A stretch of DNA of 64,000 nt, taken from assembly GCA_023244895.1 (NCBI GenBank), contig JAHFLL010000001.1, positions 489,802-553,801 on the forward strand. The letters are read 5' to 3'. Under the pieces are notes generated by a model, which saw only the letters and a list, made by a program, of their open reading frames with translations, was not told where the DNA came from and did not search any database. Below are positions 1 through 43,788 of the stretch, one piece after another. Numbering within the stretch: position 1 is the first letter of the stretch; the number at the start of each line of letters is the position of its first letter. The position numbers were made by a program, and so were the translations under genes. Origin of the DNA: Candidatus Liptonbacteria bacterium (GTDB taxonomy: Bacteria > Patescibacteriota > Minisyncoccia > UBA6257 > 2-01-FULL-56-20).

Positions 1-1036
1 AGTGTCGGTGTGCGGGATCGGGAAGTGATAAAGACTGGCCAACTCTTCGCTTGATAGAATCATGGCCTGACCCGAATCAAACTTGCGGAAAATAAAGGGG
101 TAGACAATCTTTTGGAAATTCTTGACTTTAACGAACTTGAATTCGTTGCGCCTGGGACTGGAGAATTGTTGAAATCCAGAGATTATTCCATCTAGAATAT
201 CGTTCGCCTGAAACTGAGTCGCGGCAGAAGCGAGCAAACGAACGTTTACATGGAAAAGCGGCTTAGAAATCTTTGCCTCTAAGGCTTTAACCGCGTCCTC
301 GTCTACCACCTTCTCCTTAATTTCTCCCTTGTCTTTGGTTTCGGTGCTTATTGCCTCTTTTATGTCGTCCCAATCAATATCAAAAGCATTTAAAGCCTTG
401 CGCGCGGACTCTCCCCTTTTTATGCGGTCTATTATTTTTTGGACCGATTTGTTGAGATCTTTCTTGGCAGGACTTACGGCGATTTGCATGGCCGCGCCCT
501 CTCCGAACTCATTCACCTTGGCAAAAGCTCCCAAAATAGGGGCAAAGGTGTCCGACTCCAACTCCTGGTATGTGCGAATGGGTAGATAGGCATTCTCTCT
601 TTGCTTTACGTAAGCGGTGGAGGTGGCGCCATGAGGGTTAAAGATATTGTAGTCTTCATTAGTCTGAACGACGCTCGCGCCTGGCCAAGCAGATTGGATC
701 TGTTTGCTCGTCACCTCCACCGCCTTCTTGGGCACGGATACGTAAAAATGTATTTCTTCTCCGATATGATGCACGGCTATCTCAAAAAGAAAGGGTTCGC
801 GAGCGGAAGCCAGGTTGCTAATCAATTGCTCAAACTTATTTATCTCAAATTTGAAATAGTCCTTCTCGGGCTGATTTTCTTCCTTCTTCAGTTTCGGAAC
901 CTTAACCAAGAGAAGGGCTTGATTTAGAGAACGTATAATTCCCTGACGGCGCAGCCTGCCGTAAAGAAAATATCCGCCCACGCCCAAGAGGGCGCCCAGA
1001 ATCAATATGAAGATAACCGAAAGAAATCCAAGCATC
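1..1036 (-). CDS. Hypothetical membrane-anchored protein, partial; the C-terminus runs off the window start
   Basis: A continuous minus-strand reading frame runs from an ATG at 1034-1036 to position 1 with no stop. It is absent from the ORF track because no stop falls in the window. The N-terminal hydrophobic helix reads MLGFLSVIFILILGALLGVGGYFLY, and more than 340 aa remain open after it. The plus-strand ORFs 329..589 and 601..927 are antisense to it. Confidence 0.5.
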
Positions 1037-1126
1037 GGGTAACTTAATTATACAGCAACCCGCGGTAAGTAGTAAGTAGATGGCGAAAACTATAAAGAAC
1101 GATGTGATAGACTTTCGCCTACCGAT

Positions 1127-2902
1127 TTACGCAACTTCAGCCTGATAACAGGCTTCACAATATACTATCTCTCCGCGGTCAGGGGCATAGCTGGTTTCAA
1201 ATTTATTTTGACAAGGCTCGGCTCCATGAAAATGAATGTCCGTGTTTTGATAAGTCCCATTCTGCGACCTATTCCCAGCACACCCACAGGTCCTTTTCCA
1301 TAATTTTAAAGGGTTGAGGCGAGAGAAGCGCCTTTTATGGCGACAGTCAGAACACTTGTTTGGCAGGGGTAAATCAAACCGACGCAAGAAGGCAATTTCC
1401 GCGGGGACGAAGCGATAGGCTCGAGCGCAGGACGCGCAGGCGACCACCTCTTTTAATATATCGTCTCCTACTTCATCAATGGTTGCGGGCAGCTTCTCGC
1501 CTCTAATAGTTGCGGTGTGTTCAGAAGGAGCGCCGTCACACCACCTCCATCCCGTCTCCAATGCCCGTTCCTTAGTCAGCGGGAAATACACCTGCGCGTC
1601 CGTTTCGTTGTACCCATAAAGGGAAAAGTCATACGGCATGAACTCGCCATACTTCCAAACCCTGCCCTGCGCATCAACATAAGGATTACGTTCCATGTCC
1701 GCAATAATTTGAGTTCTCAGAGAGCGAAACTCTTCGGGTGTATATTGCTTATTTAAAATGCAATATTTTTTCTTGCGCAGACCAGAACAACCGAGAAGGT
1801 CTGCTACGTCTATACACCAAACACAATATTCAGTGTTTAGCGTGTTGCCGAGAGCGCACACATAAGAAAACTTAGCATTGTGCGTACCAGCACCTACATT
1901 CATGCACTCATAAATAAGCTCTACATTGTCACCCCACATAGTATAGTCATAAGCGTCTTTGGTATGCGCGTCCTTAATAAATTGACAGAAACGAACATTC
2001 TCCAGTCCGCGCGCCTGAAAAGAATCCTTGGCGTTTTTTGATTCATATATATAGTCTCCGGACACGTTCACGTTTTGGAAGCCATGCATAAACTTGTGCG
2101 GCACTGAACGCCAGACCTCCTCCGCTCGCGCCTGGAGCTGCAAGATACCCTCTTGCGTCCTCATACTCCGGCGCAGCGATTCTAATTCTCGGACATACTC
2201 TTCTTTAGAATGAGGCTTGTTCCAGATGTAATAACTCTTATTGCGCAGATTTGCGCAACCGAAACAATCCGTACAACCCCAAAGATTTTTAGAAAAAAAG
2301 ACATTCACGCAGTCGCTGGAATCTTCCGAAAAGAAAAGTCTTGATGACTTACGACAATTCACATCCTCATAACACAGATCCGATTCTCCTACTATCAGGA
2401 GGTCCATGGAGTCTTTTATATTAGACAATCTTCCGCCGTAAAGCACATCTTCGCAATAATCCGCATCAAAAATAAGATAGCAATTCTTAGACTCGCCCGA
2501 CTCGTTCACATATTCGCTATTAATCAGGGTGGGATGATTAGTCCCTAGTGCCACTAGGGGTGTTTCGCGGAGTAAGCCTTCTAACTGCTCAAGAAATGGT
2601 TTATGGGGATCATACTCCCGCCCATAATCTAATGGACTCCACCTGTCCGACCACCAACAAGGCGGACAATAGACCACGCATTGCTTATCGGGAGAATATG
2701 TGGAAAGAGTAATTTTTCTACAAAGTGCGCACTCCCGCTTATAGAGGTGGCGTTCGTTCCGAAACATGAGCCGCCGCTGGAGCCGACAATTGGGACAAAA
2801 CGTAGGTGGCGGCACCTTTATCCTCTCGTAGAAATTGAAATCCTCCGGCTCTATCGTGAAGTCGGATTTACAATTCTGACAGCTTTTTGTTTCTGAATTC
2901 AT
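1127..2902 (-). CDS. Cysteine-rich dual zinc-ribbon paralog, family copy A1
   Basis: The track ORF is 1127..2923 from a GTG. An in-frame ATG at 2900-2902 yields MNSETKSCQNCKSDF, which matches the 7-aa lead-in seen in the other five paralogs. The N-terminal ribbon is C-x2-C-x22-C-x2-C. A repeated C-x2-C-x-DC-x-GC-x2-LRNK-x-Y motif follows. The C-terminus reads CASCARAYRF...CSDCRHKRR...ETSYAPDRGEIVYCEACYQAEVA. Confidence 0.85.
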   Translation of the reverse strand: MNSETKSCQNCKSDFTIEPEDFNFYERIKVPPPTFCPNCRLQRRLMFRNERHLYKRECALCRKITLSTYSPDKQCVVYCPPCWWSDRWSPLDYGREYDPHKPFLEQLEGLLRETPLVALGTNHPTLINSEYVNESGESKNCYLIFDADYCEDVLYGGRLSNIKDSMDLLIVGESDLCYEDVNCRKSSRLFFSEDSSDCVNVFFSKNLWGCTDCFGCANLRNKSYYIWNKPHSKEEYVRELESLRRSMRTQEGILQLQARAEEVWRSVPHKFMHGFQNVNVSGDYIYESKNAKDSFQARGLENVRFCQFIKDAHTKDAYDYTMWGDNVELIYECMNVGAGTHNAKFSYVCALGNTLNTEYCVWCIDVADLLGCSGLRKKKYCILNKQYTPEEFRSLRTQIIADMERNPYVDAQGRVWKYGEFMPYDFSLYGYNETDAQVYFPLTKERALETGWRWCDGAPSEHTATIRGEKLPATIDEVGDDILKEVVACASCARAYRFVPAEIAFLRRFDLPLPNKCSDCRHKRRFSRLNPLKLWKRTCGCAGNRSQNGTYQNTDIHFHGAEPCQNKFETSYAPDRGEIVYCEACYQAEVA

Positions 2903-2944
2903 ATTCTGCATACTACATGCCACATTCTACCTACTGCTTTTTCC

Positions 2945-4705
2945 TTATACCACCTCCGCATTGTAGCACTGCTCGCAGTAGACTATTTCTGGCCGGTCGG
3001 GGGCATACGGGGTTCTGAATTCTATCTGGCATTTTTCAGAACCATGCACGTGAACCACCTGATTCTTATATACGCTATTTAAACTGCCCACACCCGAACA
3101 CTGACATTTTCTTGGCCACAGCCCAATCGGAGTGCGGAATTTATCTCTCTCGGAGTGTCGACACTTCGGACAAAGACGCGGGATAGGTAAACCAAATCTT
3201 TTATAGAATTCCAATTCTTTTTCCAAAATGCGATAGACTCTGGCACACCCTTCACAAGATATTATCTCCTTCACTATTGCCGAGGTTGCGTCCTCTATCG
3301 AGTCCGGCAAAGCGGAAGAAGATGTGGTCGGCTCGTATTCCCGCTCTTCAATTTCTCGCCAACCAAACCCCTGGGACAGAGATTGTTCTTCGGTAAGGGG
3401 CATGTATTCAACCGCGCAAGACTCGTTATAAGCCAAGGGGGATGTCTCGGGCGGTAAAAACTCCCCGTATCTGTATGTCTTTCCCAGGGCATCTTTATAA
3501 GGAAGACTGTTCATGCTCGCGATAATTTTATCTCTTAACTTGTAATACTCTTGCTCGCTATATTGCTTATTAAAAATACAGAACTGCTTCTTCCTTAAGC
3601 TCACGCAACCGAAAAGATTGTTGGAAGAGTGACAGCCTATGCAATACTCCAAATTACTGGAGGAGGGCCAACAATCAAAGCAAAATTTAAGATTACTCAC
3701 ATTCTCACCGCAAGAAATACTTTCATAAATCAACTCGGCATTTATCCCCCAATTAGTGTAATCCATACAGTCTTTAACGCGGTCCGAAGATATTTGGGAA
3801 TATTTTACATTTTCCGCGCTGTCTATAATCAGATAGCTTTCATTTACATTCTTGCAGTTATACAAATACTCCCCCTCGGATCTTTCGTTTCTTTGAACGT
3901 GAGCGTACTTATTGGGATATTTCAGCCAAAAATCAAGAACTGTTTTTCTTATTTTCTGAAAAGCGGCATAGGAGCTGGTGTTAAATTCTTTAATTTTTTT
4001 AGCATACGACTCCTTATCGTAAGGCTGGTTAAAAATATGGTATTTTTTATGTCTTAGGCCAACACAGCCGAAGCAATCATTGCAATCTGAACAATCTTTC
4101 ATAAACCAGCAATTGCTTAGATTATAGCTATCCACCGCGAAACGGGCTTGAAAACAGTTGCCCGTATTGTAATTCTCATAACACAACTCGTTGCTCTGGA
4201 CGTCAGAAAACTCCATGCATTCCTTGAGATATCTACCCATATTACCGTACATGCAATTTTCGGAATCCCCGAAGTCAAAACACAGATAGCAGTTCTTGGC
4301 GCGGGAAGCCTGGTCGCAGTAATCGCTGTTTTCCAAAACCTGAACCGAACGGGATGCCCAGGGCACATCCCTGGAGAGGGTTTTAAATTGTTCAAAAAAA
4401 GTTTTCGAGAAATCATATTCCCGCCCATAGTCCATGGGATCCCAGGCATCCGACCACCAATAATCCCGTTCGTATATTTTTATATTCGAACTGTCCGGAA
4501 AAGAAGAAAATATTGTCTCCCCTTTTATTGCTTCTTTCTTGCGAAAAAGGTTTTTCTCGTTCCAAAAAACTAAGCGTCTTCGAAGCCGACAACTCGGACA
4601 CCAGGTCGGGGGCGGAACCTTCACGCGTTCATAAAATTGAAAGTCCTCCGGCTCGATAACGAATTCCGATTTGCAATTTTGGCAGTTTCTTTCCTCGGCG
4701 ATCAT
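2945..4705 (-). CDS. Cysteine-rich dual zinc-ribbon paralog, family copy A2
   Basis: A 586-aa ORF. It carries the same N-terminal motif, NCQNCKSEFVIEPEDFQFYERVKVPPPTWCPSCRLRRR, and the same C-terminal motif, ...YAPDRPEIVYCEQCYNAEVV. Its start overlaps the stop of A3 (4702..4705). Confidence 0.85.
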   Translation of the reverse strand: MIAEERNCQNCKSEFVIEPEDFQFYERVKVPPPTWCPSCRLRRRLVFWNEKNLFRKKEAIKGETIFSSFPDSSNIKIYERDYWWSDAWDPMDYGREYDFSKTFFEQFKTLSRDVPWASRSVQVLENSDYCDQASRAKNCYLCFDFGDSENCMYGNMGRYLKECMEFSDVQSNELCYENYNTGNCFQARFAVDSYNLSNCWFMKDCSDCNDCFGCVGLRHKKYHIFNQPYDKESYAKKIKEFNTSSYAAFQKIRKTVLDFWLKYPNKYAHVQRNERSEGEYLYNCKNVNESYLIIDSAENVKYSQISSDRVKDCMDYTNWGINAELIYESISCGENVSNLKFCFDCWPSSSNLEYCIGCHSSNNLFGCVSLRKKQFCIFNKQYSEQEYYKLRDKIIASMNSLPYKDALGKTYRYGEFLPPETSPLAYNESCAVEYMPLTEEQSLSQGFGWREIEEREYEPTTSSSALPDSIEDATSAIVKEIISCEGCARVYRILEKELEFYKRFGLPIPRLCPKCRHSERDKFRTPIGLWPRKCQCSGVGSLNSVYKNQVVHVHGSEKCQIEFRTPYAPDRPEIVYCEQCYNAEVV

Positions 4706-6459
4706 ACTACTTCGGAATTATAACAGCTCTCACAGTAAACTATTTCCGGTCGATCGGGGGCATAGGAAGTTTCAAACTGATTAGGACATCCGCCCTGGTG
4801 GCTGTGGTTAGGCTTATCGCACATGCACCCTCGGGTCCAAAGTCTGAGCGGATTCCTTTCCGCCAATCTCTCATAGTGCCTGCAATTAGGGCAAAGCCTG
4901 GGCAGAGATAGGTTCATGCGCTTATAAAACTGTAGTTCGGCGGGGATAAGTTTGAAAGCAGTCACACAGCTTGCTTCACAGTTGGCGGTATGATGGTTCT
5001 CTTGGGCATGAAGACACCCTATCACCTCCTCTAGGATGGAGTCAGGGGTGTCTTTGATATGGTCCGGCAGGTCCTGGGGTTGTTTGGTCACGGTGTATTG
5101 CTTGGTATCTGGGTCTCTCCACTTGTATCCCTGAACTAGAGCCTGCTCTTTGGTTAAGGGGAAGTACTCCTGGGCGATGGTTTCGTTGTAGGAGAAGGGA
5201 GAGAGTTCCGGGGGGAAGAACTCCCCGTATTTATATACTCTGCCTAGTTTATCTATATAGGGCATAGTATTCATATGCTCTATGATCTGGGGGACCAGAG
5301 CTTCATACTCCTCCTTGGTGTATTGCTTGTTCAAAATACAGTACTGCTTGTTGCGCAGGGCGACGCAGGCAAAGATGTTCTGACAACCGTGAGAGGCATA
5401 ACTATACTGCACGTTATGCCCGCCCCAAACGAATATATCAAAGAAGAATTTGGTTCCATTTAATCCAGTGTCAACTGATTCATATATGAGCTCGCTTGTT
5501 TCCCCTATGCCATAGCCGTCGTAAGAATCACTCAGGCGCACTCCCCCATTGATACAGAACTTACAGTCGCGAATGCCACCCCAGAAGTCGAAGCATGCTT
5601 TACAGTTGCTGGCCTCTCCCACGTTGTCGCCGGTAGTATTTTCTACCTTATACGTATTGGCATACTTCCTTATCGCCTTAAGCTTGAGCTTCTCAAATTC
5701 CTCCTTTACTCTTAAAACATTTCTATAGCTGCCCAGGTCCAATTCCAGCAATTTCCTACCGTATTCTTCCTTGGAATAGGGCTGGTTGAAGATATGATAG
5801 GATTTACCACGCAGATTAGTACAACCAAAACAATCATTGCACCCCTTGCATTGATATAAAAAGGCGGAGTTGGTGCAATTTTCTGAATTCTGTATATAGA
5901 AAGAGTGGGCTATCTTTTCTGATGAAGAGCCCTCATATACTAACTCTGAGTCAGTAACATTAAGTGAGTCCTCCGAGTCCTTCACGTTGCCGCATTTGGA
6001 AACATAGTTGGAATCTTCTATGCCCCAACATGCATGAGAAAGGTAAGAATTTTTCGCCTCGCCGGTGTGATTGCAATAGTCGCTATTAGTAGCCCGCGAC
6101 AGGAATAATGCCGGCATCGGAACCTTGTTTAGCAGCTCGCGATATTGTCCAAAGAAGGATTTTTCAAAATCATACTCGACTCCATAAGAAAGCGGGTCCC
6201 AGGCATCCGACCACCACATATCCCTATCATAGACGTTTATGCCGCTCTCCGGAGAGAAACAGGTTATGACATCCTTATCGTTCAGAGATTTACGACGATA
6301 CAGAGACCTCTCGTTGCGCCAGCTCATTCTCCTCACGCAACGGCAGTCAGGACAAAATGTCGGCGGGGGCATCTTTATACGTTCGTAGAATACAAAATCT
6401 TCCGGTTCTATCGTAAAATCCTTTTTACAATTCTGGCAATTTCTAATTTCCGGTCCCAT
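4702..6459 (-). CDS. Cysteine-rich dual zinc-ribbon paralog, family copy A3
   Basis: A 585-aa ORF with the same architecture. A GGGAGG Shine-Dalgarno lies upstream of its ATG. It contains a roughly 365-bp tract nearly identical to paralog B1. Confidence 0.85.
   Translation of the reverse strand: MGPEIRNCQNCKKDFTIEPEDFVFYERIKMPPPTFCPDCRCVRRMSWRNERSLYRRKSLNDKDVITCFSPESGINVYDRDMWWSDAWDPLSYGVEYDFEKSFFGQYRELLNKVPMPALFLSRATNSDYCNHTGEAKNSYLSHACWGIEDSNYVSKCGNVKDSEDSLNVTDSELVYEGSSSEKIAHSFYIQNSENCTNSAFLYQCKGCNDCFGCTNLRGKSYHIFNQPYSKEEYGRKLLELDLGSYRNVLRVKEEFEKLKLKAIRKYANTYKVENTTGDNVGEASNCKACFDFWGGIRDCKFCINGGVRLSDSYDGYGIGETSELIYESVDTGLNGTKFFFDIFVWGGHNVQYSYASHGCQNIFACVALRNKQYCILNKQYTKEEYEALVPQIIEHMNTMPYIDKLGRVYKYGEFFPPELSPFSYNETIAQEYFPLTKEQALVQGYKWRDPDTKQYTVTKQPQDLPDHIKDTPDSILEEVIGCLHAQENHHTANCEASCVTAFKLIPAELQFYKRMNLSLPRLCPNCRHYERLAERNPLRLWTRGCMCDKPNHSHQGGCPNQFETSYAPDRPEIVYCESCYNSEVV
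5014..5378. repeat. Near-identical DNA tract shared with 38387..38750 (paralog A3 versus B1)
   Basis: By eye the two stretches are identical apart from a handful of SNPs. Flanking paralog DNA is alignable only at the protein level. Both copies encode ACVALRNKQYCILNKQYTKEEYEALVPQIIEHMNTMPYIDKLGRVYKYGEFFPPELSPF(S/A)YNETIAQEYFPLTKEQALVQGYKWRDPDTKQYTVTKQPQDLPDHIKDTPDSILEEVIGC. Confidence 0.8.
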
Positions 6460-6508
6460 TTATTTTTTACCTCCCGTTTTCTATATTCTATCTTCCAACT
6501 TCTAGCTT

Positions 6509-6913
6509 CTATTCTACCATCCCCCTTTTCTTTAATTCTTCGTATAAATTACCGGCTAAAGCATCATGAAAAACGTCCAGAATATACGGGTTGGATTTGG
6601 CGGCCTCACTTGTCGCTTTTACTATGCCTTCTCGAAATGCCATGCCAAGAAGATTCTCTACCTCCAACTTCGTCTCCGGCGGAGCGGACTGAGCGTATTT
6701 CGGCAAGACCGAATCTTCCGACTTAGTAGGTTCTGCTGACCGGGCTACAGGAGCTACGCCCGTATAGGACTGGATAGACTGCTTGACCAGTTCGTGCCCG
6801 GAAACACCTTTCATCTCCGGATTTTCCTGATGACGCTTCAGCTCCGCGGCTACGCCGTGCAAATCTTGCTCTTGGACAGGTACTTTGATTTCTGGGGTTA
6901 GTTGATCGGGCAT
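6509..6913 (-). CDS. Hypothetical protein, 134 aa, at the head of the A paralog array
   Basis: An ORF on the same strand 50 nt upstream of A3. It has no recognisable motif. Confidence 0.45.
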   Translation of the reverse strand: MPDQLTPEIKVPVQEQDLHGVAAELKRHQENPEMKGVSGHELVKQSIQSYTGVAPVARSAEPTKSEDSVLPKYAQSAPPETKLEVENLLGMAFREGIVKATSEAAKSNPYILDVFHDALAGNLYEELKKRGMVE

Positions 6914-6972
6914 GTTGATTAGTAGTTAGAATTTAGAAGCTAGAATATAGACGAGACATCCTAGCGCGATGT

Positions 6973-6986
6973 TTTTATTGTATAAT
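6973..6986 (+). promoter_or_regulatory. Extended -10 element (TGTATAAT) 7 nt before the ATG of the downstream gene; a leaderless transcript is possible
   Basis: The TGnTATAAT sequence at 6979-6986 sits directly upstream of the ATG at 6994. There is no Shine-Dalgarno sequence. Confidence 0.3.
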
Positions 6987-6993
6987 TTAAACT

Positions 6994-8487
6994 ATGCAAA
7001 AACGCAATGTTTTATGGGGACTGTTTCTGGTCCTGATTATAGCAACCTTCCTCAGAACCTACCAACTGGATAAATTCCCACCCGGACTCTACCCGGACGA
7101 GGCCATGAACGGCAACAACGCCCTAGAGGCCATTAAAACCGGCGATTACAAAGTATATTATCCTGAAAATAATGGCCGGGAAGGTCTTTTCATAAATATA
7201 CAAGCACAGTTTTTGCGCCTGATTGGACTGAATGAACCCTGGGTTTTGCGCCTAACAAGCGCCCTAGTAGGGATACTCACCGTGTTGGGGATTTACCTTT
7301 TTGCCAAGGAACTGTTCTCGCGCAAAGTCGGGCTATTGTCCGCTTTTCTTTTGGCCACAAGTTTCTGGCACATAAACTTTTCCCGCATCGGCTTCCGAGC
7401 CATCTCCGCTTGTATGTTCGCCGTTTGGGGATTCTATTTATTGTGGTACGCTCTTCGCAAATCGAACGAACAAAAGGGCGGCTTGTGGCAAGCAATTTTA
7501 GGCGGAATAATTTTCGGGTTGGGTTTCCATACCTACATTGCCTACCGCGTTACACCTCTCCTGCTACTAATACCGCTTATTTATTTCCGGAAGAATAACG
7601 GCTTCTGGAAAATACTACTAGCGTTTCTGGTCGGCGCTTTCATAGCCGGCTTACCAATTGGTCTTTATTATCTTCAAAACCCAGGCGACTTCTTTGGGCG
7701 CACCTCCCAAATCTCTGTTTTCAGTTCAGACTCTACCCTCAAAGACCTTTCTCTCAACATAGGCAAGACTCTTTTAATGTTCTTCTACGACGGAGACTAT
7801 AACTGGCGGCACAATTACGCCGGTCGCGCGCAACTCTTCTGGCCGGTAGCCCTCATGTTTCTCGGTGGCATAATTTTAGGGCTAGGCGCCATCTTTAAGA
7901 GATATCTGGGTTCAAGGAGCCTCCACGATGAAGATAATTCCGAACTGGGAGCCCGGAAAATGCGCGCTTCTTTCTGGTTAATATTCTTGTGGTTCGGCCT
8001 GGGGCTTCTGCCGGTCATTATCTCGAACGAAGGCCTGCCCCACGCCTTGCGGGCCCTGCTTCTTATTCCCCCTGCCATAGTCCTCGCTGGAGTAGCCGGA
8101 ATATGGTTTTACGAGAAAGCCAAGGAGCGTCTACACCCTAAAATACTGGGAGGGCTGACCGTCCTATTTCTAATCCTTTTGTTTTTGGAAGCATATCAAA
8201 CCTATTTTCTACTCTGGGGACCCAATCAAAATACGCAAGGAGCCTTCGCGGCAAACTACGTGAATATCGGCGAGCAAATCAACCGGACCTCACGCCTGCA
8301 CGACAAATACGTAATAGTAGAAGGAGGCGGCACGGATGTGCGCGGACTTCCTATGCCAACGCAGACCACCATGTTTATAACCGACACCTTCCTGCCTCAA
8401 GACCAAAGGGACAAAAAAATCCACTACGTCCTCCCTGGACAAATTGAGCAAATCCCACCCGGTGCCCTGCGCTTCTATTTAAGATAG
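6994..8487 (+). CDS. GT39/GT83-type membrane glycosyltransferase (ArnT/PMT-like, 4-amino-4-deoxy-L-arabinose transferase family)
   Basis: A 497-aa polytopic protein. Its N-terminal region reads FLRTYQLDKFPPGLYPDEAMNGNNALEA...LFAKELF, which is typical of ArnT/PMT-family glycosyltransferases. Many TM helices follow. Confidence 0.7.
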   Translation: MQKRNVLWGLFLVLIIATFLRTYQLDKFPPGLYPDEAMNGNNALEAIKTGDYKVYYPENNGREGLFINIQAQFLRLIGLNEPWVLRLTSALVGILTVLGIYLFAKELFSRKVGLLSAFLLATSFWHINFSRIGFRAISACMFAVWGFYLLWYALRKSNEQKGGLWQAILGGIIFGLGFHTYIAYRVTPLLLLIPLIYFRKNNGFWKILLAFLVGAFIAGLPIGLYYLQNPGDFFGRTSQISVFSSDSTLKDLSLNIGKTLLMFFYDGDYNWRHNYAGRAQLFWPVALMFLGGIILGLGAIFKRYLGSRSLHDEDNSELGARKMRASFWLIFLWFGLGLLPVIISNEGLPHALRALLLIPPAIVLAGVAGIWFYEKAKERLHPKILGGLTVLFLILLFLEAYQTYFLLWGPNQNTQGAFAANYVNIGEQINRTSRLHDKYVIVEGGGTDVRGLPMPTQTTMFITDTFLPQDQRDKKIHYVLPGQIEQIPPGALRFYLR

Positions 8488-37158: not shown

Positions 37159-37563
37159 CTATCTTTTAAGTAGGCTGGAATGATAAACGTTCGGTTCAAA
37201 AGATTTCATAACCTTCACCTCCGGATGCCAATCAAACTCATCTAAGTGGGATCGAAGAGAATCTGCCAGCTGGACTTGGTCGTAGCCCAAAGCGATAACT
37301 TCCGGACGATGCTGCCTCACCACTCCCCAAGTTTCTATTTCCGCGTCCCCTATCACCACCTGGTCCACCTCGTCTTCGTCCAACAAGTGCTGGAACCTTT
37401 CTTCTAGATTCATTTCCGGTAAATGACCCTTTAAATGTTCAATCACATGGTCCTGCGCCACAACGGCGATCAAGTACTGACCCTGATTTTTAGCTTCTTT
37501 TAAAAACTCGCGATGCCCGCGATGTATACCGTCAAATGTTCCAAACACCATTACCTTACGCAT
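37159..37563 (-). CDS. Cytidylyltransferase-like HxGH nucleotidyltransferase (RibL/TagD/NMNAT-like small nucleotidyltransferase)
   Basis: VFGTFDGIHRGHREFLKEAK carries the (T/H)xGH motif of the nucleotidylyltransferase alpha/beta fold. At 134 aa its length is typical of archaeal-type FAD synthase or glycerol-3-phosphate cytidylyltransferase. Confidence 0.65.
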   Translation of the reverse strand: MRKVMVFGTFDGIHRGHREFLKEAKNQGQYLIAVVAQDHVIEHLKGHLPEMNLEERFQHLLDEDEVDQVVIGDAEIETWGVVRQHRPEVIALGYDQVQLADSLRSHLDEFDWHPEVKVMKSFEPNVYHSSLLKR

Positions 37564-37595
37564 TGCAGAATGAATTATGAATTAAGAATTGGGAA

Positions 37596-38039
37596 TTAGG
37601 GATAGTGGATGAGGATGCCCGCGGACTTGCTAAATTCGTGTTCGTCTTTAGCGCCTTCTGAATCTTCCCAGCGCGGACCCATAAAAATATCCGTGACGTA
37701 GCCCGAACCCAAAACATCTCTCCAGAATATTTTAAAATCAGCGTCTGGCAGTGATTCCAAGTTTATGGCGCCGTACACGTCTTCGCTAAATACATCTACC
37801 GCCGAAAAAATAGGAAAGTCATTAGCCTTCCTAAGCTGCTCCGCGAAATCATCTAGGGCGCGAATATTCTCCCATATTTTATCCCGCCCATCCGAAGCAA
37901 TCATTCCAGCTACATATCCTAGCTTCTCTTGATTACCTCTAAACTCCTTAATCGTTGAAAGCAGGGTGGCCTTTAGACTATCCAAGTCTTTTATGGAGTC
38001 TATCTCGGATTGTATTTTATCTCTTATTTTTTTGTGCAT
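37596..38039 (-). CDS. DUF4406-like protein (nucleoside 2-deoxyribosyltransferase-like fold)
   Basis: LGYVAGMIASDG and DIFMGPRWEDSEGAKDEHEFSKSAGILI recall the YxAGP...W..S.G...E pattern of that family. This rests on my memory of the family and is tentative. Confidence 0.35.
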   Translation of the reverse strand: MHKKIRDKIQSEIDSIKDLDSLKATLLSTIKEFRGNQEKLGYVAGMIASDGRDKIWENIRALDDFAEQLRKANDFPIFSAVDVFSEDVYGAINLESLPDADFKIFWRDVLGSGYVTDIFMGPRWEDSEGAKDEHEFSKSAGILIHYP

Positions 38040-38116: not shown

Positions 38117-39835
38117 TCAAGCCACTTCCGCATTATAACACTGCTCGCAGTAAACCATCTCTGGCCGGTCGGGCGCGTAACTGGTTTCAAACTCATTGGA
38201 GCAACCCGGCTTCATACACTTGCGATGCCAGAGCTTATAGGGATTTTTAAGCTTGAGGCGTTCGTAGTGCCTACAATTAGGACATAATCTAGGAATAGGT
38301 AATCCTATCTTCTTGTAAAACCCCAGCTCTTGGGGTATCAGCTTGAAAGCCGACGTGCATTGATGATTGCATCTTGCCCCATGCCCACACCCTATCACCT
38401 CCTCTAGAATAGAGTCGGGGGTGTCTTTGATGTGGTCCGGCAGGTCCTGGGGTTGTTTGGTCACTGTGTATTGCTTGGTATCTGGGTCTCTCCACTTGTA
38501 TCCCTGAACTAGAGCCTGCTCTTTGGTTAAGGGGAAGTACTCCTGGGCGATGGTTTCATTGTAGGCGAAGGGAGAGAGTTCCGGGGGGAAGAACTCCCCG
38601 TATTTATATACTCTGCCTAGTTTATCTATATAGGGCATAGTATTCATATGCTCTATGATCTGGGGGACCAGAGCTTCATACTCCTCCTTGGTGTATTGCT
38701 TGTTCAAAATACAGTACTGCTTGTTGCGCAGGGCGACGCAGGCAAAAACGTTTGAAGAGGCGTTGCAAAAGTCGGTAAATTCAACATTGGCCAGGTTGCC
38801 AATAGAGTTGGTGGAAAATTTTATGCCAGTGCTTTCTCTTCCTCCGGTCGCATATTCGTAGGATAAATCAGAATAAATGAGTCCGCTTATATCCATACTA
38901 TCTTTTAGATAGTATACGCGCATGGCGTTCTTGACGTTTTCAAGCTCCCAGCCCTCAAAACAGTTATGGCAATTTTTGGCGTTAGAAATAGCATCTCCAT
39001 CGGAATTAGCGCACTTTATGACGTCCGCCCAACGATGTAGACAGTTTTCCATCATCACCCTAAATTCAGTTTTAAATTTATCTAGATTAGAATGGCTTCC
39101 AAAATCGAATTCTTCCGACACTTTTTTACGATATTCTTCCTTGGTATATTGCTTATTGCGTATCACATACCTCTTATTCCTTAGGTTGTGAGACATTACG
39201 CAGTCCTGGCAATTCACGCAGTCAAACAGAAACCAGGAATCCACACAGTCAGTAGCGCGAAAAATAAAATGGCAGTTATTACATCTACCCGAATATGCGT
39301 CCCCGTAACACATATTGAGGCTCTCTGCATTTAAACAATCATAAGCATGAACAGAATTATCTACTGCCCGAGAATAATAAACATCTTCACAGTTAACGAC
39401 CGAGTACCCTAAGTAAACATTCTTAGATTCTCCGGTCATGTTGGAATAGCTGACGTTCTCGGAGTTATGGCGTTGCCACAGAGCCATGTGCGGTACCGCT
39501 CTGCGCAATTCCACAAACTGCTCAAAAAATGTCTTGGAAAAATCATACTCCCGACCATACTCTATCGCTTCCCACCCATCCGACCACCAGCAATCATTGC
39601 AATACACGACCAACTCCTTGTCTGGGGAACAGAAGGTAATAGTGCTCTTCCCACAAAGCGCGCATGCCCCCTTATACAGAGAGCGCTCATTGCGAAAGCA
39701 GATCCTTCTCTGTAGTCGGCAATCCGGACACCAGGTTGGAGGCGGAACCTTAATACGCTCATAGAAACCAAAATCATCCGGCTCTATTACAAATGCGCTG
39801 TGACAACTTTGGCATGTCTTGGTTTCCGGTTCCAT
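38117..39835 (-). CDS. Cysteine-rich dual zinc-ribbon paralog, family copy B1
   Basis: A 572-aa ORF reading MEPETKTCQSCHSAFVIEPDDFGFYERIKVPPPTWCPDCRLQRR...YAPDRPEMVYCEQCYNAEVA. It contains the near-identical tract shared with A3. Confidence 0.85.
   Translation of the reverse strand: MEPETKTCQSCHSAFVIEPDDFGFYERIKVPPPTWCPDCRLQRRICFRNERSLYKGACALCGKSTITFCSPDKELVVYCNDCWWSDGWEAIEYGREYDFSKTFFEQFVELRRAVPHMALWQRHNSENVSYSNMTGESKNVYLGYSVVNCEDVYYSRAVDNSVHAYDCLNAESLNMCYGDAYSGRCNNCHFIFRATDCVDSWFLFDCVNCQDCVMSHNLRNKRYVIRNKQYTKEEYRKKVSEEFDFGSHSNLDKFKTEFRVMMENCLHRWADVIKCANSDGDAISNAKNCHNCFEGWELENVKNAMRVYYLKDSMDISGLIYSDLSYEYATGGRESTGIKFSTNSIGNLANVEFTDFCNASSNVFACVALRNKQYCILNKQYTKEEYEALVPQIIEHMNTMPYIDKLGRVYKYGEFFPPELSPFAYNETIAQEYFPLTKEQALVQGYKWRDPDTKQYTVTKQPQDLPDHIKDTPDSILEEVIGCGHGARCNHQCTSAFKLIPQELGFYKKIGLPIPRLCPNCRHYERLKLKNPYKLWHRKCMKPGCSNEFETSYAPDRPEMVYCEQCYNAEVA
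38387..38750. repeat. Near-identical DNA tract shared with 5014..5378 (paralog B1 versus A3)
   Basis: See 5014..5378. Confidence 0.8.
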
Positions 39836-39873: not shown

Positions 39874-41598
39874 TCACGCTACTTCCGCATTGTAGCATTG
39901 CTCGCAGTAGACGACCTCTGTCCCGTCGGGACGGTAGCTGGACCTAAACATATTGGGGCACCTGCCCTCGGGATGGTTGGTATGGCTCGCGGTATTTTGA
40001 TACACCTTATAGTCACATCTGCATTGCTGAGGGGCGGAAAGGCGATTCGGACCGCGGGCGGTCATGCGTCGGTCGTGACGACAATCGGGACACATCCTGG
40101 GAATTGGAATATTCAAACGCTTATAGAATTGCAACTCTGGCGGAATAATACGATAGTTTTTATCGCATTTTACGCAAGAAAATATCTCCCTACTCACATC
40201 CGCCACGTTAAGGTCTCCTATGGCGTCCGGAACGTTATCCCATTTCAAAGTTTCTTTGCCATAGGTACCGCGGGGATATTCTTCCCAGCCGAATCCCAGC
40301 GCCTCCGCCCTCTCTTTCGTAAGCGGAAACTGTTCTTGAGCAACAGTTTCGTTATATCCGAAGGGACCGAGTGAAGATGGGAAAAATTCTCCATATTCTC
40401 CGCTCACCTTCATGTCCCCCACTATCTTATCTCGCAAAGATTCATATTCATCTTTGGAATATTGCTTATTCAAAATGCAATAATCCTTTTTGCGCAAACC
40501 GGCGGAACCCAGGCAGTGGTTGGAATTAAAACAATTAAGGGCATACTCCATAAAGGTAGAACTCCAGGCCTGCGCGCAGGACACACAGTTAGACACGTCT
40601 ATGCCGGTATTAATGGAATTATAGATTGTGCTTGCGTTTCTGCCCGCGGTGCTCACGTCCACGCAATCCTTAGCGTTGCGCCAAACATGCTCTCCGTAAG
40701 CGCAATCTTCCGCTTCATAAGAATGGAAACACTCTCGGCAGTTTTTCGCGTCGGATATGTAGTTCCCGGATGAGCCCGGCGCGTTTACAATCTCCGCGTA
40801 TTTTCTGGGCTGGGTTTTAATAAATTCTAAAAACTTGGCGCGCATAGCCTCTACCCCGCTTGCGGTATCAAGCCGTGCCTCCGTTATAAACCCTTCATAT
40901 TCTTCTTTGCTTAAGGGCTTATTGAAGACATAGTATTGGCGATTACGCAGATTGACGCATCCAATACAGTCACTGCAACCCCTACAGTCGTACAGAAAAT
41001 AGGAGTTTCTGCTGTCATAACAAACTTTACTATAGACAAGCTGATAACAGTTGTAGCAATCGTCACTTTCATAAGAAAGTTCGGTCTGGTGCGAGAAAGA
41101 AAGGTCCAGCGAGTCCCGACATTGCTGTACCCAATAGGAATGAATACAACCTTCATTGTTGGAGGACTCTACCAGCATATAGCAATCCTTATTATCCGCG
41201 GAAATATTCACGTACTCCGAGTTCACGCTACGCACGTAAATCAGCGCCACCTTGGGCACTTTTTTATAAATCTCATTAACCTGCTCTAGAAATGGCCGGC
41301 TTGGGTCATAATCCTGACCGTATTCTGTCGCGTCCCAGTCATCTTTAAACCAGCACTCATAGCACCAAACCGGATATGGTTTATTGGGACTATACATGGA
41401 AACCACCTCCCGCTTGCACTTATCGCAGGCGCGCTTATAGAAGACACGCTCGTTACGAAAAGCTAGTCTGCGCTGGGCGCGACACAAGGGACACATTTTC
41501 GGCAAAGATACGCCGATTTTTTCGTAAAACGTAAAATCATCCGGCTCTATCGTAAAGTCCTTTTTGCAGCTCTGGCAGGTTTTAGCTTCCGGTCCCAT
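39874..41598 (-). CDS. Cysteine-rich dual zinc-ribbon paralog, family copy B2
   Basis: A 574-aa ORF reading MGPEAKTCQSCKKDFTIEPDDFTFYEKIGVSLPKMCPLCRAQRR...YRPDGTEVVYCEQCYNAEVA. Confidence 0.85.
   Translation of the reverse strand: MGPEAKTCQSCKKDFTIEPDDFTFYEKIGVSLPKMCPLCRAQRRLAFRNERVFYKRACDKCKREVVSMYSPNKPYPVWCYECWFKDDWDATEYGQDYDPSRPFLEQVNEIYKKVPKVALIYVRSVNSEYVNISADNKDCYMLVESSNNEGCIHSYWVQQCRDSLDLSFSHQTELSYESDDCYNCYQLVYSKVCYDSRNSYFLYDCRGCSDCIGCVNLRNRQYYVFNKPLSKEEYEGFITEARLDTASGVEAMRAKFLEFIKTQPRKYAEIVNAPGSSGNYISDAKNCRECFHSYEAEDCAYGEHVWRNAKDCVDVSTAGRNASTIYNSINTGIDVSNCVSCAQAWSSTFMEYALNCFNSNHCLGSAGLRKKDYCILNKQYSKDEYESLRDKIVGDMKVSGEYGEFFPSSLGPFGYNETVAQEQFPLTKERAEALGFGWEEYPRGTYGKETLKWDNVPDAIGDLNVADVSREIFSCVKCDKNYRIIPPELQFYKRLNIPIPRMCPDCRHDRRMTARGPNRLSAPQQCRCDYKVYQNTASHTNHPEGRCPNMFRSSYRPDGTEVVYCEQCYNAEVA
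41526..41583. repeat. 58-nt identical tract shared with about 43271..43328 (N-terminal coding ends of B2 and B3)
   Basis: aaaacgtaaaatcatccggctctatcgtaaagtcctttttgcagctctggcaggtttt is identical in both. It encodes KTCQSCKKDFTIEPDDFTFY. Confidence 0.7.
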
Positions 41599-41641: not shown

Positions 41642-43345
41642 TTACGCCACTTCTTGATTATAACAACTCTCGCAATACACTATTTCCGGTCGGCCGGGGG
41701 CATAGCTGGTTTCAAACTCATTGGGGCAGTCCGACTTCATGCATTTGCGGTGCCAGAGCCTGCGGGGATTGCGCATTTTAAAACGCTCTGTTCTGCGACA
41801 GGGATAACAATATTCCGGAACCGGGATACCCATTTTGCGATAGATCATAAGTTCCGTAGGGTGTAAACGGAAAGCACCCACGCAAAGCGGGTTCCTTGTT
41901 TTTGCTTCTTCATCTTCTTGTGTTCGACAACCGATAGTTTGGCTTAGGATATCATCCGAAGCCTCAGCTACGGTGGACGGCAATTGGTCTGGAGTCATAG
42001 TGACTTTATGGTTGGTAGCCGGCTTGTCGTACCAACTATAACCCTTTTGAATTGCCTCTTCTCTAGTCAACGGAAAGTAGTCCTGCGCCATAGATTCGTT
42101 ATAGGCGAACGGGGAGACATCCGGAGGATAGTATTCGCCCCACTCCCCGGTTTTTCTCATATGCTCTACGATCTTCTTTTTTAAATCCAAATACTCCTCC
42201 TTGGAATATTGTTTATTCAAAATGCAATACTGTTTTTGTTTCAATCCAAAACAGCCGAAACAATTATTAGCACCAAAACACATGTCGCAATAACAGGAAT
42301 CAGTTATGGTGCTAAAGCAACTGCGAGCGACGATGGTGCGATGCGGGGTATCCACCCCTTGCGTCTCGTAGGATAGTTCGGCATTTATTATTTCCGTGCA
42401 ATCCCTACAGTCCTCAGTGTTTCGCCAAGCATCCTGCATATAGGCCACATCCTTATTGTCGCGACAGTTAAAACAATAATTCGCTCTTTGAGTGTTCTCC
42501 AGGTAGTCTCCGGAAGATTCCTGAGCCTGGGTACCGTGATAGTTTTTTACCGGCTTAGTTAATCTAAAGCCAGCGAATTTTTTAAGTTGCTCCCGGATAG
42601 ACAATCTTGTCCGGGTAAACTCTTTCTTTCTTTGCTCGTATTCCTCTTTAGAAAGCTGTTCGTTAAACCAACAATATTGCTTATTTCTTAATCCCCAACA
42701 GCCGAGACAATCGACGCAACCTCGACAGTCATCCGAAAAATAGATGTTTACACAGTCGGCGCAATTGCTTATCCAGGCGCAATTGGAACATTTTGCCAAG
42801 TTAATGCTCTCGTAGCAGAGTTCGGAGCTCTCTATCATGTAGCAATCAGAACACATAAAGCACTTGCGCTGGTTCCAACTGCCATACATGCACTTTTCGC
42901 TGGTATCGCTCGTGACCAGCATGTAGCAGTCCTTGTTATCTTGGGACTGATTTGTGTATTCACTATTTACGCTATTCGCATTAACCAAAGCAAGATGAGG
43001 AACTACTCGGCGCAATTCTTCGTATTGCTCAAAAAACGGGCGGTTGAAATCAAAGTTCCGCCCATAAACGGATGCGTCAAAAGCGTCCGATTTCCAATAG
43101 TCCTGCTTGTAGACCGGAAATGAGACGTCTGGTCGGTAAATGGAGATTATGTCCTCCCCGGTAGCATCGCACTTGCGCTTATAAAAGTTGTACTCGTTTC
43201 TATCCGAAAGCCGCCTAATATATCTGCACTCCGGGCAAAGAGTCGGAGGCGGCACATCTATTTTTTGATAAAACGTAAAATCATCCGGCTCTATCGTAAA
43301 GTCCTTTTTGCAGCTCTGGCAGGTTTTTACTTGAGATTCGGTCAT
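41642..43345 (-). CDS. Cysteine-rich dual zinc-ribbon paralog, family copy B3
   Basis: A 567-aa ORF reading MTESQVKTCQSCKKDFTIEPDDFTFYQKIDVPPPTLCPECRYIRR...YAPGRPEIVYCESCYNQEVA. Its start overlaps the NUDIX stop (ATGA). Confidence 0.85.
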   Translation of the reverse strand: MTESQVKTCQSCKKDFTIEPDDFTFYQKIDVPPPTLCPECRYIRRLSDRNEYNFYKRKCDATGEDIISIYRPDVSFPVYKQDYWKSDAFDASVYGRNFDFNRPFFEQYEELRRVVPHLALVNANSVNSEYTNQSQDNKDCYMLVTSDTSEKCMYGSWNQRKCFMCSDCYMIESSELCYESINLAKCSNCAWISNCADCVNIYFSDDCRGCVDCLGCWGLRNKQYCWFNEQLSKEEYEQRKKEFTRTRLSIREQLKKFAGFRLTKPVKNYHGTQAQESSGDYLENTQRANYCFNCRDNKDVAYMQDAWRNTEDCRDCTEIINAELSYETQGVDTPHRTIVARSCFSTITDSCYCDMCFGANNCFGCFGLKQKQYCILNKQYSKEEYLDLKKKIVEHMRKTGEWGEYYPPDVSPFAYNESMAQDYFPLTREEAIQKGYSWYDKPATNHKVTMTPDQLPSTVAEASDDILSQTIGCRTQEDEEAKTRNPLCVGAFRLHPTELMIYRKMGIPVPEYCYPCRRTERFKMRNPRRLWHRKCMKSDCPNEFETSYAPGRPEIVYCESCYNQEVA

Positions 43346-43788
43346 TTTGCTAAACGGAGATATTCTTTTACGCCCCTGAGCCAGCCACCCTTAAACTTTT
43401 CCTCCGGGCGGAAAGTTCTAACATCTTCCCAGCTCATTTCCGTATGACGTTTTGATAATTTAATTTCTCCTCCAGTCAACTTTGCTTCATAGCCGATTGC
43501 GAAAATCTGGACCTTCAACTTTCCCCCACTCACGCTCTCCTGTCTTTCGTGGCGCATAAAAACAACCGGCTGACCGAGTTTATACTTCACGCCTCCCAGC
43601 TCCTCTTTGATTTTCCGAGCGATAATCTTCTCTATCGGTCTGCCGAACTCTTCCGGCAACATTCTGCCACCCGGCAAGTCCCAGCACCCAAAAGAATCCT
43701 TTAAAATCAACAGCTTGTCTGCCTTGCGTAAAAAGACCTTAAAAGCCACAAAATACAGGCCTTTACCGTTTAAGCTGTCCGATTTCAT
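43342..43788 (-). CDS. NUDIX hydrolase
   Basis: The Nudix box reads GGRMLPEEFGRPIEKIIARKIKEELGG, matching GX5EX7REUXEEXGU. The gene is translationally coupled to B3. Confidence 0.8.
   Translation of the reverse strand: MKSDSLNGKGLYFVAFKVFLRKADKLLILKDSFGCWDLPGGRMLPEEFGRPIEKIIARKIKEELGGVKYKLGQPVVFMRHERQESVSGGKLKVQIFAIGYEAKLTGGEIKLSKRHTEMSWEDVRTFRPEEKFKGGWLRGVKEYLRLAK

Follow-up and report, generated by a model that had tools for sequence, protein, structure and literature searches.

We analysed a 64,000-nucleotide stretch of DNA (the window) from a Candidatus Liptonbacteria bacterium (GenBank assembly GCA_023244895.1, contig JAHFLL010000001.1, positions 489,802 to 553,801 of the forward strand). 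The window carries six paralogous genes for a Cys-rich protein, in two trios on the minus strand, and a first-pass annotation made from the letters alone had proposed that each paralog is internally duplicated. The subject of this report is the paralog A1, the last of three head-to-tail paralogs (A3, A2, A1). In the list of open reading frames (ORFs), A1 spans 1127..2923 (-) and encodes 598 aa from a GTG at 2923. This GTG is the start in the mechanical ORF list and also in the gene call of the database, and homologues start at Met8, which corresponds to the ATG at 2902. Since alignment with the paralogs and homologues puts the consensus start at Met8, this ATG is likely the true start, giving a protein of 591 aa, and the upper coordinate of 2902 in the first-pass annotation coincides with it. 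A promoter and terminator scan of window positions 900-7100 gave signal no higher than the shuffled expectation.

We found that A1 consists of five parts in the order A (residues 7-92), B (112-254), B' (265-410), linker (411-487) and A' (488-595). A and A' are each a pair of predicted Cys4 zinc fingers, and B and B', referred to below as M1 and M2, are the two halves of the core. All parts being on the minus strand, N-terminal finger 1 (residues 8-62) lies at 2738..2902, N-terminal finger 2 (63-100) at 2624..2737, M1 at 2162..2590, M2 at 1694..2131, the linker domain at 1463..1693, C-terminal finger 1 (488-545) at 1289..1462 and C-terminal finger 2 (546-598) at 1130..1288. The strings quoted in the first-pass annotation were all found in A1 at the places given for them: the N-terminal string CQNC...KREC at residues 15-65, the C-terminal string CASC...KRTC at 496-546, and the two copies of a central motif, GCTDCFGC...KEEY and GCSGLRKKKYCILNKQYTPEEF, at 216-243 and 378-399. 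The distance of the second ribbon from the C-terminus, put there at about 70 aa, needs correction, as the C-terminal ribbon starts ~100 residues before the end of the protein.

Profile-profile comparison with hhalign (56 members of the family) aligned the N-terminal module (residues 7-92) to the C-terminal module (488-595) with a probability of 99.5% and an E value of 3.9e-22 over 86 columns, and M1 (112-254) to M2 (265-410) with a probability of 99.8% and an E value of 8.1e-29 over 140 columns. The profile consensus sequences were 30% identical between the terminal modules and 24% between the core repeats. When every Cys was replaced with X, the E values were still 6.9e-12 (N versus C) and 1.9e-26 (M1 versus M2), and control comparisons of ribbon with core gave E values of at least 0.1. 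The similarity therefore goes beyond cysteine spacing, since its significance survives the masking of the cysteines. A hidden Markov model (HMM) built from the six N-terminal modules matched the C-terminal module of each paralog among the matches listed, at 31-49 bits. Furthermore, both similarities were recovered when each of the six paralogs was compared with itself by single-sequence BLASTP, with E values of 2e-16 to 5e-9 for N versus C and of 5e-14 to 3e-7 for M1 versus M2. A profile dot plot of 312 sequences contained exactly three off-diagonal signals, at offsets of 156 (M1/M2, z ~9), 481 (the first fingers, z ~8) and 503 (the second fingers, z ~4.5). Together, these sequence comparisons showed that the two finger pairs are mutually homologous and that M1 is homologous to M2. 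The claims that all six copies are internally duplicated and that the N-terminal C4 ribbon recurs near the C-terminus were thus borne out by BLASTP, HMM and hhalign, and the self-alignment that the first-pass annotation had proposed as a check detected the duplications themselves and not a spacing of cysteines alone.

The repeating units turned out to be larger than had been described. At the termini, the unit is a pair of Cys4 fingers of ~86-108 residues instead of a single ribbon. In the core, the two copies of the 28-residue Cys-rich repeat seen in the first-pass annotation are real, and they belong to a whole domain of ~140 residues that occurs exactly twice; the quoted GC-x-x-LRNK-x-Y-x-I-x-NK-x-Y-x-KEEY motif is the best-conserved, C-terminal end of this domain. 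A short-period repeat at the level of individual coils, suspected at ~23 residues from the spacing of conserved Tyr and Phe, was not significant in the profile dot plot, where the best period was 12 residues (z 2.8). We found no intragenic similarity at the DNA level, and the duplications are therefore old.

Both duplications were present in the six paralogs and in ~200 complete homologues from 83 loci, showing that they predate the radiation of the family. Among the 225 family genes at these loci, nearly all complete ones contained two A and two B modules in the same order. Two domains were recorded in 193 of 224 genes with the N-module HMM and in 204 of 220 with the core HMM; where only one domain was recorded, the cases examined proved to be split genes, such as those at loci L024, L030 and L038, or ORFs truncated at the end of a locus. 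In all of the best 150 among 3,687 representatives, the core began near residue 100 of a protein of ~550-600 residues. No natural half-length relative was seen among the top-scoring matches listed, and the shorter proteins listed for the representatives could be fragments truncated by contig ends. The split genes consist of two adjacent ORFs (L024 6602-7698, L030 19635-21323 and L038 1790-3535); they appear to be frameshifts or pseudogenes, which suggests turnover within the arrays.

How these proteins arose can be read, with some reservation, from the order of their modules. The most sceptical account denies any true duplication and attributes the resemblance to convergence in the spacing of cysteines and in the composition of a protein rich in Cys. 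CxxC knuckles do arise by convergence in many zinc fingers; this account is nevertheless already refuted by the Cys-masked E values of 6.9e-12 and 1.9e-26 alongside non-significant ribbon-versus-core controls, and many non-Cys positions (F-x-I-P, FY-x-R, P-x-P, CR-x-x-R, SY-x-PD and VYC-x-x-CY) are common to both modules, and we give it practically no credence. The history put forward in the first-pass annotation, in which a ribbon and a Cys-rich repeat formed an ancestral unit that duplicated once, in tandem, within the gene, accommodates the ancient internal duplication in all six copies, the occurrence of each element type exactly twice per protein and the similar divergence of the two types (30% and 24% identity). 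However, it predicts the order A-B-A'-B', which was not seen in any of ~200 complete family members, whereas the order A-B-B'-linker-A' was constant in the family genes examined. In addition, a conserved and unique domain of 77 residues stands between B' and A', with no counterpart between A and B. On the grounds of module order we regard a single tandem duplication as improbable. The order instead indicates two or more distinct events of duplication or fusion. The simpler history would be that B was duplicated in tandem and that a second copy of A was placed at the far end, and fusion of an A-B protein with a B-linker-A protein would also fit. Internal duplication is in itself an ordinary evolutionary feature.

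We then considered the terminal fingers individually. Across 312 sequences, the Cys ligands of all four fingers were 72-100% conserved, with 98-99% for the four Cys of N-terminal finger 1. The first fingers of the two ends use the ligand sets C15/C18/C43/C46 and C496/C499/C524/C527, which were 94-99% conserved together with F22, F31, Y32, P38, P40 and R47. Both thus carry the treble-clef arrangement CxxC...CxxC with an aromatic and proline core between the knuckles, as in PF13451. In the second finger, the N-terminal module reads CALCRK...VVYCPPCWW and the C-terminal module C...CQNKFETSYAPDRGEIVYCEACY. The N-terminal spacing is C65-x2-C68-x17-C86-x2-C89, and the C-terminal finger, with ligands C546, C571, C589 and C592, has the spacing C571-x17-C589-x2-C592 with SYAPDRxEIVYCExCY, which conforms to the CxxC-~17-CxxC pattern and P-D...VYC-x-x-C signature of PF23477 and TIGR04272. 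The ligands of C-terminal finger 2 were 99-100% conserved, its spacer varied in length, and the protein ended in ...VYCExCYxxEV[AV]. The first fingers are basic, with a median isoelectric point (pI) of 8.8 at the N-terminus and 9.6 at the C-terminus, where the A1 copy is strongly basic; finger 2 is acidic (pI 4.9). Loss of N-terminal finger 2 was all-or-none, with four Cys in 225 of the 312 sequences and none or one in the remaining 87, the behaviour expected of a real metal site. The C-terminal fingers were intact essentially always across the family. From these ligand sets, the proteins are predicted to hold four structural Zn ions, or three where N-terminal finger 2 has been lost.

The first fingers resemble PF13451 (zf_Tbcl, 'probable treble clef domain') in the layout C-x2-C, F-x-I...FY-x-K/R...P-x-P, C-x2-C-R-x-x-R, and the weak direct matches span profile positions 4-44 of 48. 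In contrast to PF13451, which is itself without an established function, the fingers of this family never stand without a second finger fused to them, and they occur at both ends of a protein of ~590 residues. The second fingers share C-x2-C...S/T-Y-x-P-D-x-x-E-x-VYC-x-x-CY with PF23477 (zf_Tbcl_2) and TIGR04272 ('CxxC-x17-CxxC domain'), and they differ in that the C-terminal copy has between 2 and ~30 residues separating its first ligand (C546) from the next (C571), and in that ~28% of family members no longer have any of the four Cys of the N-terminal copy. Pfam searches of the 56 members at E <= 0.01 matched PF23477 in 28 (best 1.8e-9) and PF13451 in 10 (best 3.5e-6), and several homologues carry a precomputed PF23477 label. 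For PF13451, with a cut-off of 24 bits, A2, B1 and B2 scored 17.3, 14.6 and 16.4 bits, and A1 had no match at E <= 1. For PF23477 and TIGR04272, with cut-offs of 27 bits (Pfam) and 36 bits (NCBIfam), B1 scored 19.3 and 18.9 bits, and the isolated A1 modules, whose second fingers are weak PF23477 matches, reached 15.3 and 16.1 bits. The first fingers of the family are likely related to PF13451 at the superfamily level only. In BFVD, the sole hits were local superpositions of the fingers on 'zinc-ribbon domain' proteins (0.6 A over 40 columns).

A tandem pair of zinc fingers also recalls the LIM domain, which consists of two contiguous treble-clef-type zinc fingers and acts as a protein-protein interaction module. 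With a profile of 12 modules searched against PDB sequences, the second finger aligned marginally with the second finger of the CRP1/CRP2 LIM domain (C..C.k.l......d.e.YC..CY, E 0.0098). The module as a whole was not significant, however, and the family ligands are Cys4+Cys4 with other spacing, unlike the C2HC plus C4/C3H/C3D of LIM; one of the 56 members matched the Pfam LIM model (E 0.004). The resemblance is an analogy and not a membership.

The core and linker make up the remainder of the protein. M1, delimited from its hhalign match to M2, its predicted secondary structure and model confidence, and its Cys conservation, is predicted to run from a helix through a long beta-hairpin and short beta-solenoid-like coils, which bear a Cys cluster, to the LRNK-Y-I-N-K-Y strand and the KEEY helix. 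The cluster is conserved in the family as CxxC-x8-CxxCxxCxxC (A1 residues 203-224, window 2252-2317), with Cys in 91-97% of sequences at C217, C220 and C223. Most members keep five or six of its six Cys, and A1 keeps four (C205 and C217-x2-C220-x2-C223). In M2, which has lost most of its Cys, the M1-type cluster is largely gone and only C379 and C388 are conserved. The CxxCxxC cluster of M1 may be a further, fifth metal site or an Fe-S site that M2 has lost. The linker domain (77 residues), with its conserved motifs YGEF-P, YNE, PLT and GW-W, had no internal counterpart in the profile dot plot. Conservation across the family was high at the termini, and the surface of the core was variable.

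AlphaFold2 modelled the full-length protein from the 56-sequence alignment with a mean pLDDT (predicted local distance difference test) of 90.3 and a pTM (predicted template modelling score) of 0.89, and the pLDDT dropped, to 68-74, only across the M1 Cys cluster. On the basis of these values, the protein is predicted to fold as one compact body and not as beads on a string. The prediction for each half of the core starts with a helix and a long hairpin, continues with runs of 4-5-residue strands and ends with a conserved strand and a further helix. A Foldseek search of the model against the PDB gave no match at E <= 1e-3; the top matches were faint and mainly left-handed beta-helix proteins (E >= 1.4e-3, probability <= 0.38, template modelling score (TM) 0.05-0.22). 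Left-handed beta-helix or hexapeptide proteins (LpxA, LpxD, GlmU and gamma-carbonic anhydrase) lead that list, and M2 is predicted as 4-5-residue strands spaced ~6 residues apart, as in such a helix. However, there is no global fold match with them, and the core halves of the family add a long hairpin and flanking helices. None of the 56 members matched Pfam Hexapep, the dot plot held no short-period signal and the TM values stayed at 0.05-0.22. 'Beta-solenoid-like' is thus a description that we infer from the model and does not denote a fold match. The core domain matched nothing in Pfam, NCBIfam, PADLOC or PDB sequences, and the full-length profile had no match to PDB sequences at E <= 1.

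The other five paralogs of the window are likewise on the minus strand. A2 (2945..4705, 586 aa) and A3 (4702..6459, 585 aa) have the order A-B-B'-linker-A', and the start of A3 overlaps the stop of A2 by 4 nt. The second trio (B3, B2, B1) lies 31 kb from the A trio and comprises B1 (38117..39835, 572 aa), B2 (39874..41598, 574 aa) and B3 (41642..43345, 567 aa). The six paralogs are mutually 38-57% identical and contain 31-39 Cys per protein, and in three of them, A2, A3 and B3, all four Cys of N-terminal finger 2 are gone. The six copies cost ~10.5 kb, or ~1.2% of the 840-kb contig on which a protein identical to A1 is encoded, in a group (the Candidate Phyla Radiation, CPR, or Patescibacteria) whose genomes are tiny. 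A 366-bp tract of A3 (5014-5379) is 97.5% identical to one of B1 (38387-38752), although the loci are 33 kb apart and the proteins ~57% identical overall, and a 68-bp tract at the 5' ends of B2 (41516-41583) and B3 (43260-43327) is 97% identical. Both pairs of tracts look like recent gene conversion or recombination between paralogs.

Beyond the window, the family comprises at least 5,904 clusters at 90% identity, the matches listed being mostly of 565-600 residues, and the core alone accounts for at least 3,687 clusters at 50% identity. All source names that specify a lineage were Patescibacteria or Parcubacteria, and nearly all matches were named 'hypothetical protein'; the family is essentially confined to Patescibacteria. 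The 83 loci carried same-strand arrays of one to nine family genes. When A1 was compared with 401 external sequences, 231 of them outscored its best paralog in its own genome, and B2 was 65% identical to a gene at locus L009 and only 42% identical to its own paralogs. These comparisons indicate that the paralogs are ancient. We found no paper on the family, DUF8128, zf_Tbcl, PF13451, PF23477 or TIGR04272. Among the PADLOC anti-phage models, A1 and B1 had no match at E <= 0.01, and the neighbouring ATPases described below matched generic HerA/mad8 P-loop models only. The family is a large CPR-specific one with a defined domain grammar, in which homologous zinc-finger pairs flank a duplicated core.

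Next to A1, the window contains part of a VirD4/TraG-like ATPase gene of the FtsK-HerA superfamily (1..1035, -). It is cut by the window edge, encodes the N-terminal 345 of 794 aa and lies 92 bp downstream of A1. The full 794-aa gene, on a contig of the same organism (locus L005), contains DUF8128 and T4SS-DNA_transf/TrwB_AAD_bind/TraG-D_C domains (T4SS, type IV secretion system) and matched the window ORF in phmmer at E 5e-227. BLASTP of the partial ORF against the ATPase of locus L001 gave no match, because the window holds just the non-ATPase N-terminal part. When all flanking ORFs of the 83 loci were clustered, VirD4/TraG-like ATPases were the only specific recurrent neighbour, with 52 genes in 28 loci and three length classes (~460, ~500 and 690-870 residues). 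All except one (51/52) were on the strand of the family genes, many at less than 100 bp, and 28 of 51 directly adjoined a family gene, versus 18.7 +/- 2.7 expected from within-locus permutation. Twelve of the 30 full 20-kb loci contained such an ATPase, compared with an estimate of ~5% for a random stretch of 20 kb, based on a published count of about two such genes in each genome. This linkage of the family to orphan coupling-protein-like ATPases is previously unreported.

The three long ATPases tested (L001 11787-13628, L043 12097-14163 and L070 15743-18343) carried, after the P-loop domain, a zf_Tbcl_2 finger above the Pfam cut-off (54-57 bits), the same type as the second finger of the family's terminal modules. 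As coupling proteins, the ATPases are recognised at the level of Pfam, the one at L001 clearing the cut-off for TrwB_AAD_bind (53.8 bits against 20.5) and that for T4SS-DNA_transf (36.5 bits against 20.1), and their scores fell far below the NCBIfam TraD/VirD4 equivalog cut-offs. In conjugative systems, coupling ATPases work with small DNA-binding accessory proteins. The family recalls type IV coupling systems (VirD4/TraG/TrwB) in that it is genomically coupled to VirD4/TraG-like ATPases, and differs from them in that no relaxase, VirB4 or channel gene was seen in the family loci and in its lack of similarity to any relaxosome or adaptor protein known. A survey of 2,918 Patescibacteria genomes counted 5,713 VirD4-like genes, only 148 of them near virB4, and the literature explicitly treats the role of VirD4-like ATPases in Patescibacteria as unsettled (PMC12102498).

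Inspection of the sequences revealed neither a signal peptide nor a transmembrane segment, and the proteins are zinc-rich; they are therefore most likely cytoplasmic. Tentatively, we propose that the family protein is a zinc-stabilised adaptor or scaffold that would work with the adjacent hexameric VirD4/TraG-like ATPases. At either end, the first finger, which is basic and conserved, would bind the ATPase, which has a zf_Tbcl_2 finger of its own, or some polyanionic ligand. Differences in specificity between the ancient paralogs would come from the core, a pseudo-dimeric and beta-rich body with poorly conserved surfaces. It is possible, though we hold this more loosely, that the family and two or three classes of orphan VirD4/TraG-like ATPases form an unrecognised Patescibacteria-specific machine for handling nucleic acid or protein, exapted from conjugation coupling proteins. 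Its paralogs would then be pseudo-symmetric bodies with a finger pair at either end, serving as interchangeable adaptors for substrates or targets. Several observations weigh against this reading of the family. The window paralogs score under the Pfam gathering cut-offs for both finger families. The linkage is incomplete, since no ATPase was within reach of the B cluster or of many other loci. Given that the same blocks repeatedly contain MreB, DnaJ and SecDF, part of the linkage may be synteny that related Paceibacteria have inherited. Taking the evidence as a whole, we lean slightly towards the explanation that this is a Patescibacteria family with a fixed architecture of finger pair, M1, M2, linker and finger pair, which arose through at least two duplication or fusion events and may act as an adaptor with the ATPases. 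Its domain grammar and its link to VirD4-like ATPases ease an experimental approach to one of the larger CPR-specific protein families.

Other functions would make different use of the same observations. If the linkage to the ATPases were pure synteny, the function of the family would be unrelated to them. Alternatively, the paralogs could be translocated cargo, for example effectors delivered into the host cell of a presumed episymbiont, with the ATPases recognising the conserved termini and the variable core acting on host targets. The tight linkage to VirD4/TraG-like genes, the contrast between highly conserved termini and a variable core surface, the multi-copy arrays with gene conversion and the apparent specialisation of the patescibacterial T4SS for non-conjugation roles would all suit such cargo. 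However, most patescibacterial VirD4-like genes are not near virB4, four predicted Zn-stabilised fingers in a compact fold (pTM 0.89) are ill-suited to unfolding-dependent export, the paralogs are ancient orthologous subfamilies and not fast lineage-specific expansions, and the loci sit among housekeeping genes; we therefore consider export unlikely. A role in metal buffering or chaperoning, or as an Fe-S protein using the CxxCxxC cluster of M1, seems less probable still. It would account for the 31-39 Cys per protein, for the CxxC-x8-CxxCxxCxxC motif, of which most members keep five or six of the six Cys, and for the recurrence nearby of CutA1, a P-type ATPase containing HMA, and Nramp. Against it, the density of metal sites is low in comparison with real metal-storage proteins, the nearby genes could be a matter of synteny alone, Pfam and NCBIfam gave no match to an Fe-S or redox family, and A1 itself retains just four of the six M1 Cys. 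An adaptor working with the ATPases remains the reading that we prefer.

Further genes recur around the family. Among housekeeping neighbours, MreB, L19, RluA, MetRS, DnaJ and SecDF were found repeatedly. Metal-related neighbours comprised CutA1 in nine loci, the HMA-containing P-type ATPase in seven and Nramp in four, and such genes lay near the arrays at L009, L019, L021, L030, L036, L063, L070 and L081 as well as other related loci. The recurrence of both groups may be synteny only. In the window, small nucleotide-related genes on the minus strand lie on either side of the B trio (37159-38039 and 43342-43788). They include a NUDIX gene whose stop overlaps the start of B3, a weak DUF4406-like gene, and a gene for a 134-aa cytidylyltransferase-like protein, which recurs beside family genes at five other loci (cluster c13).

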